Positions 1,491 through 15,481 of a stretch of 27,572 bases of DNA are shown here, in pieces. The translations under genes were made by a program, and so were the position numbers. Source of the stretch: a virus. Lineage: Duplodnaviria > Heunggongvirae > Uroviricota > Caudoviricetes. The stretch spans positions 1 through 27,572 of the IMG/VR virus record IMGVR_UViG_2639762873_000006; one strand, given 5' to 3'. Under the pieces are notes generated by a model. That model made no database searches. It was not told where the DNA came from and was given only the letters and a program-made list of their open reading frames with translations. Within the stretch, counting starts at the first letter, position 1, and the number at the start of each line of letters is the position of its first letter.

Positions 1491-1523
1491 AATAGCTACT
1501 ACACAAATAAAGTAGTAGCTATT
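1491..1523 (+). terminator. perfect 12-bp stem hairpin (AATAGCTACTAC / GTAGTAGCTATT, 9-nt loop)
   Basis: Inverted repeat read directly from the sequence just after the stop at 1481-1483; no T-run, so it may be a processing or attenuation site rather than an intrinsic terminator. Confidence 0.45.
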
Positions 1524-1591
1524 ACTAAATATCATAGCTATAATAATTCACATCAAACATCACCTCACACAATCACTACAAGGATTTACTA

Positions 1592-1972
1592 ATGAAAAAT
1601 CTCTTTACCCTAGCTGTACTCGCTACGGCTACAATCACTACTGGCTGTACTACTATAACGCCTGCTTTTATGAATGAAGCCGTAGTAGGTGATATTAACG
1701 GTCGTACACTAGTATTATTCCCCGTAAATGGTGGTAAAGAGTATCGCCCACAATTCAGTAGTGATTGTCAGCCTATGCTATTGGGTGAAGAACGCCCATC
1801 TACTGGTAGCTGTATTATTGCCGCCGACCGACTTACAAATATTCATAGCTTCGAAGAACATAAAGCCCACGGCCCCCACAAAAACACCACTAAGATAGTT
1901 GATCGTTCAAATAATTACGGTACAGAATTTGAGTTATCGAAACCAACTAATTATATAGACGATAATCTGTGA
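1592..1972 (+). CDS. putative lipoprotein (126 aa)
   Basis: N-terminus MKNLFTLAVLATATITTGC: basic residue, hydrophobic core, lipobox-like TTGC with Cys at about position 19; RBS AAGGA 8 nt upstream. Confidence 0.6.
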   Translation: MKNLFTLAVLATATITTGCTTITPAFMNEAVVGDINGRTLVLFPVNGGKEYRPQFSSDCQPMLLGEERPSTGSCIIAADRLTNIHSFEEHKAHGPHKNTTKIVDRSNNYGTEFELSKPTNYIDDNL

Positions 1973-2151
1973 TGAAGAAAACAATATTTGCCGTACTTTT
2001 AGTTATGGGGACTGCATATTACTATGATATAATAAAATACATTAACCCTACTTATTAAATTGCAGTCGCCGTAATCAAAAACACTGTCATTATCTGGCAT
2101 CAACAATGCCATTGATTCTGATAAAGTAGATAATCCCGAATGGATGAATTT

Positions 2152-2532
2152 ATGAAAAAGATTGTACTGTCTGCATTACTGTTAGTAGCCCCTTCGGTAC
2201 TGGCAGTAAATGTAATACTCCCTGATGATGGTTTATATCGTTGCGGTGTTGAATCGTGGGAACAGGTAGGAAAGCGAGTAGTAAAGACTGGTTATTATGG
2301 TATGACTGGTTATGTGAGTATTGATAACCGTGCTGTTAGTGTGAAGTTTAGGGATATGAATATTTCATTCAGCCCTGTTTCAAAACTTAAAAGCGGTCGC
2401 CTGATGGCCTATGCCGTAGATACTGACCAGTACGATATTATTATTAGTGCAATCAATGGTAAAACACAGTATATGGTCAGCAATGAGAATAATCCCGTAT
2501 TTTTGAACTTCTCCAATTGTATTATTGAATAA
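2152..2532 (+). CDS. secreted protein, paralog A (signal peptide MKKIVLSALLLVAPSVLA)
   Basis: Start at MKK chosen by alignment to paralog B; shared GLY(R/Q)C motif and C-terminal (F)(S/Q)NC(I/V) motif. Confidence 0.6.
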   Translation: MKKIVLSALLLVAPSVLAVNVILPDDGLYRCGVESWEQVGKRVVKTGYYGMTGYVSIDNRAVSVKFRDMNISFSPVSKLKSGRLMAYAVDTDQYDIIISAINGKTQYMVSNENNPVFLNFSNCIIE

Positions 2533-2541
2533 GGAATAGAA

Positions 2542-2928
2542 ATGAAAAAGGTTATCGTATCTGCATTACTGTTAGTAGCTCCTTCGGTACTGGCTAACAC
2601 TCACTCTCTACCAGAGCAGGGATTGTATCAATGTGATGTGAAAGTAGTTGAAATGCTGGGTGATACTCCAGTAGAAAAATCTTCTTATTCTGGTGCAGGT
2701 CACGCTAAAGTTAATAGTGATGGTTTTATCCTTAACTTCGGTGCAATGACTCACGCCACCGGACCAATAGAATCTAATGATTCAATGACAATGGCTTATG
2801 ATAATGATAAGCAGCGATACTTCCTTGCAACAATGGGAAGTAAAGAGCAAAACGATATTACTTTTATCTTCTTATTGAGATCTGATACTCGTAATTACTA
2901 CTTTCAAAACTGCGTTAAAATAAAATAA
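2542..2928 (+). CDS. secreted protein, paralog B (signal peptide MKKVIVSALLLVAPSVLA)
   Basis: RBS AAGGAA upstream; signal peptide nearly identical to paralog A at nucleotide level; mature part diverged. Confidence 0.65.
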   Translation: MKKVIVSALLLVAPSVLANTHSLPEQGLYQCDVKVVEMLGDTPVEKSSYSGAGHAKVNSDGFILNFGAMTHATGPIESNDSMTMAYDNDKQRYFLATMGSKEQNDITFIFLLRSDTRNYYFQNCVKIK

Positions 2929-2937
2929 GGGATATAT

Positions 2938-3147
2938 ATGTCAGAGAAACTAATTAAAGCAATCCGTAATATCACGGAATATAATATGAGTATTGAGCGT
3001 ATCATTGTTAGTACCGAAGACCAGCAACACTATTATAGTATTAATCCTTATAAGGAAACTGTAATAAAGGTAGCAGACCAATACGGCAAACCAATTGAAG
3101 GGGAAGTAGAAATACCACAAATACCGCCATTATTCGATACTAACTAA
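2938..3147 (+). CDS. hypothetical protein (69 aa)
   Basis: ORF with RBS AAGGGA; followed by an intrinsic terminator. Confidence 0.5.
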   Translation: MSEKLIKAIRNITEYNMSIERIIVSTEDQQHYYSINPYKETVIKVADQYGKPIEGEVEIPQIPPLFDTN

Positions 3148-3153
3148 TAATAT

Positions 3154-3180
3154 AGCCCACTAATAAAAGTGGGCTTTTTA
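3154..3180 (+). terminator. rho-independent terminator (AGCCCACT / AGTGGGCT stem, then TTTT)
   Basis: 8-bp perfect stem, 6-nt loop, T-run, directly after the stop at 3145-3147. Confidence 0.7.
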
Positions 3181-3198
3181 ATCTAATAAGGAAAGTAA

Positions 3199-3672
3199 AT
3201 GAAAATTATAAAAAACATTCCTTCACTTCCAGATGTAGAAGTGACACTAAGTAGCCGTACTAATGAAATTGTATTAGTACACAATACTAAAACTGGTCAT
3301 ACAGTAGTAGAGAATAATGATTCATGGTATGAGGGAAACACCGATAAAAAATCACATTGGGGTGATCATATCGATGATGCAGCAGCTTTTCATAGCTTCG
3401 CACAGAATCGCTGTACTAATCCCACTACTAAACCAGATCAAATTAGTGATTTAGCATTAGGTACGTTTTGCTTTCATAATGTATTAGAAGAAGATCTTGT
3501 ATTTGAAAACACTGATTACCATGCTGCAAGGTTATCCGGTATAGGTCGTGTAGTACCCACTGATTATAATAGTGTGACGGTATATGATCCAAATAATAAC
3601 CCACCAACCACTATTACAGGCGATGCAGCAGAAATTATAGTTCGCCTTCTATCAATGACAGTAACCAACTAA
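3199..3672 (+). CDS. hypothetical protein (157 aa)
   Basis: ORF with RBS AAGGAAA; no recognisable motif. Confidence 0.55.
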   Translation: MKIIKNIPSLPDVEVTLSSRTNEIVLVHNTKTGHTVVENNDSWYEGNTDKKSHWGDHIDDAAAFHSFAQNRCTNPTTKPDQISDLALGTFCFHNVLEEDLVFENTDYHAARLSGIGRVVPTDYNSVTVYDPNNNPPTTITGDAAEIIVRLLSMTVTN

Positions 3673-3678
3673 TAATCT

Positions 3679-3700
3679 AGCCCACTACTCACAGTGGGCT
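3679..3700 (+). repeat. second copy of the AGCCCACT / AGTGGGCT hairpin (different loop, no T-run)
   Basis: Same 8-bp stem as at 3154-3175 with conserved flanks (TAATAAT.TAG upstream, AATCTAA..AGGAAA downstream). Confidence 0.5.
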
Positions 3701-3725
3701 ATTCAATCTAACGAGGAAAAATATA

Positions 3726-12046: not shown

Positions 12047-15000
12047 ATGGCAGATCAAATTTTTACAGGGAGTGGTTTTAAATTATTTTATAATGACGAT
12101 ACCGCAAACCGTATCCCCGATAACGCAGGGAACGAGCTAGTAAATGAATTGGCGGCTATGCCTTCATTCGGTATTGATAGCCAAGTACAAACTATTGAAG
12201 TATATAACAGTGAATTTTCAGAGAAACTACTCGCAGAACAGAACGTAAACGATATTGATATTGTTGTTAACTACGTACCAGATTGCACCGCTCACGCATT
12301 TTTAGATCAAGCGACCGAAGATCAGACCGAGTTCCAGCTAACACTACAGTACGCCGTAACTGATGGTATCATCTCCTACAGTATGGTGAATGGTATGATT
12401 AGTTCCGCTCGCCTTGCTGGTGATAAAGACTCAGTAGTTACTAAATCATATACCTTTACCCCTACCGACGTTCTAGTACGTGATGGACAGGCACCATTGA
12501 GTACCGGACTAGTTGTAGGATCATATGGCGTAGGTAGTAACGGCGTAGACGTACCACAGTACGAACCACAGTTACCAAATGGCAACAGTTTTATCAAAGT
12601 ACCAGCAGCACGCAATGATAACCCAGCTAGTGCGGATCTAATGGGTATTGGTCTTATCGATTCCGGTACATTCTCCAGTATTGCAATGACTAAATCCGGT
12701 ACATTGGCAATCTATGCAAAGAACCAGAATACAGCATGGACGCGTATACTTACTGCAACTCAGATTAGTGATCAGTATGTACCACTTACGCGTAAGGTTA
12801 ATGGTAAAGCACTAAATGCAGATATTACTATTACTAAAGTAGATGTAGGACTAGGTAACGTAACTAATGATGCACAATTGAAAATAGCTAGTAACCTTTC
12901 TGATTTAAATAACGTCAACACAGCCCGTACTAACTTAAAAGTAGCTCGTTTTGAAGAAACTAGACCAGACCTAAGTACAATTTATTCTACTGATGATAAG
13001 TCTGGATATAAAGTAGTAGTACGTAGTGATGGCTATTGGGGTGCAATGAATGCAGACGGCACAGTCACTAAAGGTCTATCGATTGACATGGGCGGTACTG
13101 GTGCAAATACATTAGCACAAGCTCAAGCTAATCTAGGTATTGTAACTAGTGCGGCACAGGATGGAAAATATCTAGCTAAGGCAAGTAACCTTTCTGATTT
13201 ACCAAGTAAACCAACAGCCCGTACTAACTTAGGATTAGGTACAGCAGCTACATATAATGTAAGTAGTTCCGGTGCAAACGTTCCATTAATGAGTAGTGCA
13301 AATACGTGGACTGGAATACAATATTTTGGCAATGCACAATTTACATCTACCTATGTTAACCCGTTATTGATTCATAGTCCTACACCTACAATCTATTTGA
13401 AAGATACAGATACAAACGGCTTAGGGATGAAATTAATTGCAGATGGTAGTGTATTCCGTATGCAAGATGATACCTCCGCTGAAACGTGGGCTTTTTCTTA
13501 TAATTACAGTACGAAAGTAGTTACAATGCCATCCTTGCAACTTGCAACTAAACTACAAGTAGCAGAAGGCGGTACGGGTGCAACAAATTGGAAACAGGCA
13601 GCATATAACCTTAACGTTATGCCATATAACCGCAATAGTTTAACTGCAAGTGATAATCTCAATAATTTTGGTGGTCTTAATGCTGGTGTATATTTTTGTG
13701 CTTCAAGTGCTTATGCAACCCCTGCAAATAACTACCCAGAAGCTAACGCAGGTACAGTAATAGTTTATCAGAACGCCGCAAATAGTAGTGATGGTTGTAC
13801 ACAATTTTACTATCCATTCAATACTAACAAAGCATATAAACGTATTCTAAGATTTACCAGTCCAACTACTTCTACGTGGTCATCATGGGCAGAGATCCTA
13901 ACCTCCGAACATATTACCCCCGGTAATATCCCTCGTTTAAATGGTGGTAATACGTGGAATGGTAACCAATCTATTGATACTGGTTATCTAACACTAGGTT
14001 TAAAAAATACCAATGCAACCGCATTTGAAATTGGTAGCCAAACTACAAAAAACTCAGCTTATATTGACTTCCATACAAGCGGTTTAACTAATGACTATGA
14101 TACACGTATTATTGCAGAAACTACTACATCCACTGCAAATGGACAAGGTAAATTATCCTTCGTTGGTGGTGAGTTTAACTTTAATAATAATATTACAGGT
14201 CAGGGAAATATTACGGCTAATGCCTTTATCTCTAAAACTGTAGTTAGTGCAACTGGTGCTATCACTGGTGCAAGCCTCAATACTGGATCTGGTGCTATCA
14301 CTGGTGGTGCAATTAGCGGTACTACATTGACTACAACAGGAGCGGCGAAAGTAGGTAGTATTGATTCTACTGGTGGTCTATATGGGACTGGTGTAGTACA
14401 GGCAGATTCAGCCACTACTGGTACTTATATTAGAATGGGTAATGGTACAACTGATAACTATATCACAAGTAACAACTTCCCAGCAGGCGGTACACAACGC
14501 TATCTACAGTTCAAGAATGACGGTACTGTTAGAATCTCCGACCAGTTGATTATGCACAATAACTTAGATGCAAGTGGTAGCGACTTCCAAGTTACGGCTA
14601 ATAACTTCCGTATAGTAACTGGTGGTAATGGTCTACAGATCAAAAACAATTCAGGATCTGTATCATCTTATCTATCTGGCATTGGGTCTACTAACGTTCG
14701 CGAATGGTACATAGGTAAAGGTGGATCAGGTAAAGGGATTGCATGGTGGAACGATATGTCAGGCGGTCACGGTGTTGATTTAGGGGCAGATGGTAACATC
14801 ACATTAAATACCCTTGCCAGTACCGGAAACGTTAACATACGCGGTACTATGTCAACTACTGGTAGATTATCCGTAACAGGTGATGTAACAGCTTCCGGTA
14901 TAGTTAGAGCTAATACTACTTTTTCAGTTAATGGTACTAGTGGAACTTCTAACGCCCACCTATGGTACTACGGTCACACTGGAGCAAGTCGCGGCGTAAT

Positions 15001-15481
15001 CTATGCGGGAAGTGGCGGTACTATTAACTTCCGACCGGATCGTAATGATGCTGGGGGAGCTAATGGATACTCCGCAGCACTAGATTATACTGGTAAATTT
15101 ACTTGTATGTCGTTATCTCAAACATCCGACCAACGAGCTAAATATGATGCCGCTGATATTAGTGATTCACTAGGTAAGGTACTACAGCTAACTGGTAAGA
15201 CTTATAAAATGAAAGTTACACCAGAAGTAGAAGTAGATGGCGTGGGATTCTTTGCTCAGGAAGTAGAAAAATTCTTCCCAGAAGCTGTATCATCCGTTGG
15301 TAGTGCATATACTCAAGAAGGCGAAGAAATCGAAAACCCACTAGGTCTAGATTATCAGGCTATTTCTGTACTATATGCTGGGGCTATTAAAGAGCTAAAT
15401 GCTAAAGTAGAAGACCAACAATTACAACTCGATGAACTACGTGCTGTAGTAACTCAATTACTAATCGCACAGAATAAATAA
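12047..15481 (+). CDS. tail-tube-domain / tail-fibre fusion protein with C-terminal S74-type intramolecular chaperone domain
   Basis: Residues 1-150 align along their length with the 152-aa tube protein (15538-15996), roughly one-third identical by eye; two phage tail-fibre repeats (NLSDL...ARTNL); Gly/Thr/Ser/Asn-rich fibrous middle; C-terminal SDQRAKYD ... GFFAQEVEKFFPEAV ... coiled coil matches the S74 autoproteolytic chaperone pattern. Confidence 0.75.
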   Translation: MADQIFTGSGFKLFYNDDTANRIPDNAGNELVNELAAMPSFGIDSQVQTIEVYNSEFSEKLLAEQNVNDIDIVVNYVPDCTAHAFLDQATEDQTEFQLTLQYAVTDGIISYSMVNGMISSARLAGDKDSVVTKSYTFTPTDVLVRDGQAPLSTGLVVGSYGVGSNGVDVPQYEPQLPNGNSFIKVPAARNDNPASADLMGIGLIDSGTFSSIAMTKSGTLAIYAKNQNTAWTRILTATQISDQYVPLTRKVNGKALNADITITKVDVGLGNVTNDAQLKIASNLSDLNNVNTARTNLKVARFEETRPDLSTIYSTDDKSGYKVVVRSDGYWGAMNADGTVTKGLSIDMGGTGANTLAQAQANLGIVTSAAQDGKYLAKASNLSDLPSKPTARTNLGLGTAATYNVSSSGANVPLMSSANTWTGIQYFGNAQFTSTYVNPLLIHSPTPTIYLKDTDTNGLGMKLIADGSVFRMQDDTSAETWAFSYNYSTKVVTMPSLQLATKLQVAEGGTGATNWKQAAYNLNVMPYNRNSLTASDNLNNFGGLNAGVYFCASSAYATPANNYPEANAGTVIVYQNAANSSDGCTQFYYPFNTNKAYKRILRFTSPTTSTWSSWAEILTSEHITPGNIPRLNGGNTWNGNQSIDTGYLTLGLKNTNATAFEIGSQTTKNSAYIDFHTSGLTNDYDTRIIAETTTSTANGQGKLSFVGGEFNFNNNITGQGNITANAFISKTVVSATGAITGASLNTGSGAITGGAISGTTLTTTGAAKVGSIDSTGGLYGTGVVQADSATTGTYIRMGNGTTDNYITSNNFPAGGTQRYLQFKNDGTVRISDQLIMHNNLDASGSDFQVTANNFRIVTGGNGLQIKNNSGSVSSYLSGIGSTNVREWYIGKGGSGKGIAWWNDMSGGHGVDLGADGNITLNTLASTGNVNIRGTMSTTGRLSVTGDVTASGIVRANTTFSVNGTSGTSNAHLWYYGHTGASRGVIYAGSGGTINFRPDRNDAGGANGYSAALDYTGKFTCMSLSQTSDQRAKYDAADISDSLGKVLQLTGKTYKMKVTPEVEVDGVGFFAQEVEKFFPEAVSSVGSAYTQEGEEIENPLGLDYQAISVLYAGAIKELNAKVEDQQLQLDELRAVVTQLLIAQNK
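12890..12937 (+). repeat. tail-fibre repeat unit, copy 1 (48 nt)
   Basis: AGTAACCTTTCTGATTTA + 12 nt + ACAGCCCGTACTAACTTA; both 18-nt blocks identical to copy 2. Confidence 0.8.
13184..13231 (+). repeat. tail-fibre repeat unit, copy 2 (48 nt)
   Basis: Same two 18-nt blocks as copy 1 with a different 12-nt spacer; encodes SNLSDL....ARTNL. Confidence 0.8.

Follow-up and report, generated by a model that had tools for sequence, protein, structure and literature searches.

Why does a prophage carry, close to its packaging genes, a row of genes whose products appear destined for the envelope of its host? The question arises at positions 1592-2928 of IMG/VR record IMGVR_UViG_2639762873_000006, where genes for a lipoprotein and for two paralogous proteins, A and B, follow one another. 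We refer to the whole 27,572-nucleotide stretch of DNA as the window; contigs and complete genomes identify it as the right-hand 27.5 kb of a prophage that measures ~33 kb and interrupts the Escherichia coli gene yegD. A preliminary description, made from the letters of the DNA, had seen in these genes a possible module for modifying the host envelope or excluding other phages. Our answer is a qualified one: by analogy with known systems, the genes may best be understood as an accessory, swappable cassette for envelope protection of the exclusion type, most plausibly against superinfecting phages, a reading that we prefer and hold tentatively.

Envelope-exclusion proteins already known include Llp, Cor, Sp/Imm and SieA. 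To our knowledge, exclusion at the envelope is nevertheless the least catalogued layer of prophage defence, because the proteins concerned are small, fast-evolving and invisible to libraries of hidden Markov models.

Export signals and fold of the encoded proteins

The three genes lie where the preliminary description had placed them, and an export signal could be recognized in each, using rule-based criteria together with conservation. The lipoprotein gene (1592-1972, plus strand) encodes 126 amino acids (aa), of which residues 1-18 are a predicted signal peptide and C19 the predicted lipidated cysteine. Its N-terminus, MKNLFTLAVLATATITTG|C, combines a lysine at position 2, an uncharged hydrophobic stretch and the lipobox ITTG|C, in agreement with the TTGC lipobox described earlier. 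The relaxed PROSITE PS51257-type pattern fits, with [AGS]-C within the first ~35 residues; the threonine at position -3 lies outside the strict L/V/I consensus. G18-C19 is invariant in all seven members of the lipoprotein family, in an alignment that reaches down to 50% identity, and the residues before G-C are variable (ITTGC, VLVGC, LITGC). Under the Lol sorting rule the residue at +2 determines outer-membrane sorting. This residue is always threonine or serine in the family (threonine in the window protein) and never aspartate, and the lipoprotein is for that reason predicted to be sorted to the outer membrane. Two further cysteines, C59 and C74, are also invariant.

Paralogue A (2152-2532, plus strand, with an alternative start at 2140; 126 or 130 aa) and paralogue B (2542-2928, plus strand; 128 aa) each begin with a predicted signal peptide of 18 residues, cleaved at VLA|VNV and VLA|NTH to give secreted forms of 108 and 110 aa. 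For A, the ATG at 2152 is the likelier start, by analogy with B and from the spacing of GGA(T)GA. The two proteins open with MKKIVLSALLLVAPSVLA|VNV and MKKVIVSALLLVAPSVLA|NTH, that is, with classic n, h and c regions (MKK, IVLSALLLVAPS and VLA|), V-x-A at -3/-1 and a maximum nine-residue Kyte-Doolittle hydropathy of 3.2-3.3; a signal is present in all members of the barrel family to which they belong. BLASTP aligns A with B at 33% identity (E 6e-20), and they are truly paralogous, as had been proposed along with their cleavable signal peptides. The conserved cysteine-containing motif reported at their C-termini, F-x-N-C, is kept in every family member, as is a second one, G-L-Y-x-C-x-V, near the mature N-terminus; both also occur in two distant relatives, P0016 and P0018.

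AlphaFold2, given an alignment of seven mature sequences, returned a small all-beta, up-and-down beta-meander barrel with nine strands by DSSP (predicted local distance difference test, pLDDT, 92; predicted template modelling score 0.84). The invariant Cys13 and Cys105 sit in the first and last beta-strands of this model, and may be joined by a disulfide. Both this invariant pair and the conservation seen in the N-terminal third of the barrel argue for purifying selection on a folded protein. Structure prediction of the mature domains, which the preliminary description had put forward as a check, was thus informative for the barrels; for the lipoprotein it gave a poor model, too weak for a fold search, and profile searches of that protein against the PDB gave noise alone.

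The barrel architecture raises an alternative, namely that the cassette confers by lysogenic conversion an immunity to envelope attack other than by phages. The barrels would then be periplasmic inhibitors of peptidoglycan hydrolases, functionally like PliC, MliC, ACP and PhiA or like the immunity proteins of type VI secretion systems (T6SS) and bacteriocins, with the lipoprotein as a possible membrane-bound counterpart; targets could be animal lysozyme, T6SS amidase or muramidase effectors, or lysozyme-like bacteriocins. MliC, PliC and ACP are barrels in which a disulfide joins the first and last strands (PMC5507604, PMC2267010), the topology that a Cys13-Cys105 bond would have, and ACP inhibits lysozyme without the family motifs (PMC5507604). 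The hosts, moreover, are gut isolates, and the eight-stranded antiparallel barrel of MliC/PliC (PF09864) can be found in the A/B model, though DSSP gives nine strands. The likeness to MliC/PliC (PF09864, COG3895), however, stops at the fold: the Pfam model is unmatched, a PDB profile search did not recover these inhibitors, and hhalign against an alignment built from verified PDB sequences gave a probability of 0.35%. The motifs that mark MliC/PliC, SxSGAxY in loop 4 and YxxxTKG on beta6 (PMC5507604), are not conserved in the barrel-family alignment, and the SYSGAGH of B lies in the beta2-beta3 loop, not in loop 4. Foldseek puts fatty-acid-binding protein and lipocalin folds on top, and the likeness of A and B to MliC/PliC, Neisseria ACP and Brucella PhiA is no better than to Cap15, de novo designed and other unrelated barrels. 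E. coli, finally, already has Ivy, MliC and PliG. As modelled, the barrels are PliC-like in architecture and stand outside the PliC family, and we consider immunity to non-phage attack unlikely.

Distribution of the protein families

Searches for the lipoprotein, A and B yielded no match in Pfam, PHROGs (E<=1), NCBIfam or PADLOC (PADLOC-DB 2.0, scanned for catalogued defence), and scans of the cassette neighbours against the same four libraries gave no meaningful match. One candidate, a CBASS-cyclase assignment for A (E 0.014-0.15), fell well under the cut-offs. Nothing was found for the lipoprotein in a scan of GTDB, and the cassette had zero matches among GenBank phages and plasmids, whether searched as DNA or with tblastn. 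With the mature-domain alignment as profile, an exhaustive HMMER search across 1.84 billion representatives recovered only four core clusters and the two distant relatives, P0016 (E 8e-8) and P0018 (E 2e-4), in which an N-terminal membrane anchor and a linker of ~40 aa replace the cleavable signal. Paralogue B forms a single cluster in a database of 5.8 billion proteins, with E. coli members exclusively. A match of the barrel profile to the beta-trefoil of botulinum HA33 (E 0.001) was rejected: its domain i-Evalue is 0.08, it spans the junction of two trefoil domains, its composition is rich in N, I and Y, and it clashes with the confident barrel model. No annotation resource contains the lipoprotein or barrel families, whose distribution is extremely narrow.

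A variable slot with exchangeable alleles

What the proteins have in common across related prophages is their place. We define the slot as the stretch between a conserved gene for a 227-aa protein and the packaging genes. In the window it holds the lipoprotein, a 28-aa open reading frame (ORF), A and B. Sister element L013 has the same lipoprotein, an A allele 53% identical to that of the window, and a 152-aa lipoprotein in place of B and of the 69-aa gene that follows B. In L018, L019, L024 and L025 the slot contains a 225-aa lipoprotein, a protein with multiple transmembrane (TM) segments, an A allele 44% identical, and a P2 Old-type nuclease on the opposite strand; in L027 it contains a possible remote barrel (hhalign E 0.007, both cysteines aligned), a 95-aa secreted protein and the lipoprotein. 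The lipoprotein is the only cargo in L020, and in L022 and L028 it is accompanied by an unrelated 109-aa secreted protein with two cysteines. L014 has a TM-anchored barrel only, and L016/L017 a 113-aa secreted two-cysteine protein, a TM-anchored barrel and a 47-aa TM peptide.

The slot persists in elements whose large terminase subunit (TerL) is merely 41-47% identical, and exported proteins are consistently present in it. The genes of P0016 and P0018, from elements with TerL just 41-42% identical, lie directly downstream of a homologue of the 227-aa gene and upstream of terS, and so occupy the same syntenic slot. The L016/L017 element resides on the chromosome of a member of the Enterobacteriaceae other than E. 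coli, and L022 likewise has a non-E. coli host. The nuclease of L018 (10795-12615, minus strand) directly follows the barrel gene of that msyB-associated element and is a P2 Old-type ATPase/TOPRIM protein (PADLOC Old, E 1.4e-74; Pfam AAA_15 and OLD-like_TOPRIM); a defence gene of this type in the hypervariable slot fits a role in exclusion or defence. The preliminary description had treated the three genes as one module. Because the lipoprotein and the barrels occur apart or in other combinations in sister elements, they are frequent yet independent cargo, and no obligate module exists.

The 227-aa protein (800-1483) is the conserved left anchor of the slot where it can be detected, with homologues at 31-43% identity in L014, L016/L017 and L022; in L018 and L020 none was detected. 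Neither Pfam nor PHROGs matches the protein, which may regulate the genes downstream.

Comparison of close relatives shows how the cargo changes. The backbone of L013 matches that of the window at 95-100% identity; its A allele is the divergent one noted above, and B is swapped for a different lipoprotein. The DNA of the two is 100% identical up to ~2200 and 40-70% identical thereafter, and the break falls exactly at the junction between signal peptide and mature domain. The signal-peptide DNA of A (2152-2204) and that of B (2542-2594), both on the plus strand, are the two copies of a 53-nt direct repeat (D2), 89% identical to each other, and the copy in A would serve as the left recombination arm for allele replacement. 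P0005, for its part, is a mosaic made from two alleles. A further direct repeat of 56 nt (D1; 3139-3194 and 3664-3719, plus strand, 84% identity) flanks the gene for a 157-aa protein, each copy comprising the last codons of the preceding gene, a AGCCCACT...AGTGGGCT hairpin and the ribosome binding site of the next gene. A partial copy (family D3; 1941-1958, plus strand) places the 5' part of D1 inside the 3' end of the lipoprotein gene. The D1 copies look like cassette boundary or recombination sequences. Taken together, the junction break, the 53-nt repeat, the mosaic and the 56-nt boundary repeat point to recombination at conserved boundary sequences as the means by which cassettes are exchanged.

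The gene that supplants B and the 69-aa gene in L013 (13151-13609, strain WGI31CT) encodes a lipoprotein that begins MKKVILSAIVAISLSG|C and belongs to no family found, its weak NCBIfam matches being confined to the signal peptide. In the window, the 69-aa cytoplasmic ORF (2938-3147, plus strand) lies between B and a terminator-like hairpin, and is probably co-transcribed. Its allele varies: it is 63% identical in L004 and has no counterpart in L013. Farther along, L004/L009 have a 232-aa gene in place of those for the 157-aa and 218-aa proteins, and L011 lacks both of the latter.

These patterns bear on a further alternative, in which the exported proteins have no defensive role: they could be ligand-binding periplasmic proteins (calycin or YceI-like binders of small hydrophobic molecules), adhesion or fitness factors, or simply neutral ORFan cargo in a recombination hot spot. 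The library searches, which gave no family assignment, are what one would expect of such cargo. The slot is conserved, however, and its exported proteins are consistent across deep divergence; the selection on the invariant cysteine pair and the N-terminal third of the barrel appears to be purifying; and the pattern of allele replacement is typical of conflict loci, which argues against a neutral or non-defensive role. We regard this alternative as quite unlikely.

Relation to the phage's own proteins

If the barrels recognized components of the phage that carries them, their alleles might be expected to change together with those components. Three complete prophages were available for the comparison. 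In the prophage with different cargo (A 53% identical, B absent), J is 98-99.6%, the tape-measure protein 98.6% and the endolysin 100% identical to the window. Conversely, in the prophage with identical barrels the tape-measure protein is different (66%), as is the C-terminal end of J. The side fibre differs in all three. The barrel alleles thus show no co-variation with those of J, the tape-measure protein or the endolysin, although with n=3 this is a weak result. Within the limits of those three prophages, the independence of the alleles would point to an external target, and not to a match with the phage's own receptor-binding protein, tape-measure protein or endolysin. Receptor masking, offered in the preliminary description, accordingly finds no support in its self-matched form. 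Allele diversity of this kind would equally suit the diverse external effectors invoked under immunity to non-phage attack.

Transcription signals and a possible lytic role

The boundaries of the cassette are marked by sequences that may bear on its expression. On the left, directly 3' of the 227-aa gene, a perfect 12-bp inverted repeat with a 9-nt loop (1491-1523, plus strand) has no U-tract; it folds at -15.8 kcal/mol (z -4.87), and 0 of 200 shuffles fold equally well. It is a strong hairpin, or possibly an operator, at the left boundary. A TATAAT hexamer resembling a -10 element (1539-1544, plus strand) lies 47 nt upstream of the lipoprotein start behind a poor -35 (TAGCTA); it was read off the sequence and went unreported by the promoter scan, and remains conjectural. 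A weak hairpin upstream of A (2095-2111, plus strand) overlaps a promoter-like ATGCCA-17-GATAAT (2106-2134) and folds no better than shuffles (z -0.9). On the right, after the 69-aa gene and within D1, a hairpin of 8 bp, 5 of them G-C, is followed by TTTTTAAT and resembles an intrinsic terminator (3154-3175, plus strand; z -2.9). With the hairpin and TATAAT on the left and the terminator on the right, the arrangement resembles an autonomous unit, the promoter being its weak part.

Between the lipoprotein and A lies an unannotated 28-aa ORF (1972-2058, plus strand), MKKTIFAVLLVMGTAYYYDIIKYINPTY, whose start overlaps the lipoprotein stop codon (TGATG). It has a hydrophobic N-terminal segment and is a candidate small membrane peptide. 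It is identical in 13 of 13 close relatives (12 loci and the window), weak evidence given how alike these loci are, and the family-library scans found no homologue. Comparable small TM ORFs (47 aa) lie in the slot of L016/L017. Because the frame of the 28-aa ORF contains a TAA at 1963-1965, a frameshift fusion of the lipoprotein with it is ruled out.

The orientation of the genes suggests a third alternative, an envelope function in the lytic cycle, either in lysis and its timing or, with expression from the rightward lytic operon, in stopping progeny from re-adsorbing to debris. For lysis, the lipoprotein would act like a spanin with an 88-aa protein that combines a TM segment and a coiled coil, or the exported proteins would regulate the endolysin in the periplasm. 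The cassette does read in the direction of both its upstream neighbours and the packaging genes; the lipoprotein gene of L022/L028 abuts the conserved gene upstream; and no o-spanin was found beside the 88-aa i-spanin-like gene. Lambda has its lysis genes and bor just before cos/nu1. T5 Llp, furthermore, is an early lytic gene (PMC9586334). Yet ~23 kb separate the lipoprotein gene from those for the i-spanin-like protein and the endolysin; the mature lipoprotein is long (108 aa), with only ~6% proline and no C-terminal TM domain; and, as stated, its frameshift fusion with the 28-aa ORF is ruled out. A spanin role is unlikely in view of where the lipoprotein gene lies, how long the protein is, how little proline it contains and how patchily it is distributed. 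Nor are the lipoprotein and the barrels core genes: the former is missing in L014, L016/L017 and L018, the latter in L020. The endolysin is 100% identical where barrel alleles differ. We therefore judge a lytic function very unlikely.

Several observations do weigh against the envelope-protection reading that we favour. All the cassette genes point the same way as the lytic operon, and a gap of just 1 nt divides the lipoprotein gene of L022/L028 from the gene upstream (stop 4221, start 4223 in L028), which together make expression in the prophage state uncertain. The G+C content of the cassette (0.36-0.41) does not stand out from that of its flanks. The blank PADLOC and PHROGs searches count on the same side, as does the weak model of the lipoprotein (pLDDT 55, below 50 for residues 78-108, with the C-terminal ~30 residues predicted to be disordered). 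The position of the gene is also unexpected. The exclusion lipoprotein genes llp and cor lie directly downstream of the gene for the receptor-binding protein or gpJ (PMC9586334), unlike the lipoprotein gene of the window, which is ~19 kb upstream of J and before terS. The genes after J (20595-23897) encode proteins of 82, 98 and 215 aa, none with a lipobox.

A possible mode of action

How might such a cassette protect the cell? A and B would be exported by Sec and cleaved after VLA, and oxidation by DsbA would yield a small beta-barrel in which a disulfide clamps the first strand to the last. The 28-aa peptide may reside in the inner membrane. In the cell envelope the exported proteins could then bind or inhibit their targets stoichiometrically, shielding the lysogen or infected cell from envelope-crossing agents, chiefly superinfecting phages. 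The target of the lipoprotein may be a component of the outer membrane, and the barrels may neutralize a periplasmic step, for example the action of an ejection protein or of a peptidoglycan hydrolase carried on the tail. Specificities would be renewed when the segment coding for the mature domain is replaced, one homology arm being supplied by the conserved signal-peptide DNA.

It is tempting to go further, and to see in A and B the founders of a new protein family carried by phages, whose disulfide-stapled beta-barrels would serve in the periplasm as inhibitors or immunity proteins, with cassette-swapped mature domains that determine specificity and an invariant signal-peptide arm. Together with the lipoprotein and the miniature membrane peptide they would form a multi-layer shield (outer membrane, periplasm, inner membrane) that keeps out heterologous phages, or toxins acting in the periplasm, through so far undescribed mechanisms. 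This stronger version is rather unlikely, if worth bearing in mind.

The prophage and its other genes

Insertion into yegD, an HSP70-like gene, is by a 532-aa large serine recombinase. Only 2 of 5426 complete E. coli genomes carry the prophage; one instance (L011/L012) is NZ_CM151386.1 1811416-1844641. From the left, the prophage has int, a ribbon-helix-helix protein, small ORFs, the 227-aa protein, the cassette and proteins of 69, 157, 218 and 128 aa, followed by TerS, a gpA-type TerL, portal, capsid and tail genes, and finally by a GH24 endolysin (minus strand), a GIY-YIG nuclease, a two-TM protein and attR. The cassette is ~3 kb upstream of terS and ~9 kb from attL. As the preliminary description had it, the proteins are non-structural and encoded in an accessory region near a genome end, in the sense that, should cos adjoin terS as in lambda, the cassette would lie close to an end of the genome as packaged.

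The closest TerL of a GenBank phage is 37% identical, which places this phage far from those in GenBank, and we found no paper describing a comparable yegD prophage. Sister elements are located at yegD, at ybhA and beside msyB, in E. coli and other Enterobacteriaceae, and the cassette-bearing elements are best explained as a family of serine-integrase temperate siphophages of the Enterobacteriaceae. No recognizable repressor or replication genes were seen in the prophage, and Rfam and tRNA scans found nothing.

Other features of the window are recorded here for completeness. A 16-bp inverted repeat with a 9-nt loop (298-338; free energy -19.4, z -4.4) lies 3' of the first ORF, and just past it is a very hydrophobic 33-aa ORF (350-451). 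Directly 3' of the head-tail connector genes, a 1144-aa protein (12047-15481) has an N-terminal segment like a major tail protein (phrog_158), contains tail-fibre repeats and ends in an S74 chaperone; each of the three complete prophages compared has a different version of its C-terminal part. In the lysis region, the 88-aa i-spanin-like gene (25159-25425) precedes the GH24 endolysin (25453-25905, minus strand), which is on the opposite strand beside a SegE-like GIY-YIG nuclease (25895-26383). The final gene before attR (27279-27572) encodes a 97-aa two-TM holin candidate.

Significance and comparison with known systems

Three or four exported proteins from families that no annotation resource contains are here brought together in a compact set open to testing. 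The locus suits a simple plating experiment, and the natural allele series (28-98% identity on a near-identical backbone) could map specificity directly. Should a phenotype be absent, the locus would be an ORFan accessory region of a rare prophage, and mechanistically there is nothing surprising in it so far. Should the barrels prove to be periplasmic inhibitors, they would be a second structural solution to periplasmic blocking, beside the helical bundle of T4 Spackle, and recombination anchored in signal-peptide DNA would be a route by which secreted proteins diversify.

Phage accessory genes that act on the envelope from a variable slot are well known. T5 Llp and the Cor proteins of T1 and phi80 likewise provide an accessory function to E. 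coli siphophages, and Llp acts from the periplasm by binding the receptor FhuA (PMC9586334). Neither has sequence similarity to the window lipoprotein, which is without a match in Pfam or PHROGs, and whose mature form, as given above, compares with ~61 aa in Llp.

For A and B, the closest functional analogy may be T4 Spackle (gp61.3), a small Sec-exported, disulfide-bonded periplasmic protein that acts as a stoichiometric inhibitor of the tail lysozyme of the incoming phage (PMC7677548). Spackle is an alpha-helical bundle, however, in contrast to the all-beta barrels of A and B, and no sequence relationship links them (PHROGs was blank). Moreover, Spackle is highly conserved among T-even phages, whereas the mature domains of A and B are hypervariable and swapped.

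In its location the cassette recalls lambda Bor, other prophage morons and the Old/Tin/Fun hot spot of P2, which are also accessory genes in a fixed slot near packaging genes or cos, with varying content. Bor has no homology to the cassette proteins, the base composition of the cassette is not atypical, and its own promoter is only a candidate. The cargo of the slot consists mostly of exported proteins, as opposed to cytoplasmic nucleases. Against this familiar background, the notable new features are the beta-barrel architecture, the allele replacement anchored in signal-peptide DNA and the recurrence of exported proteins in the slot.

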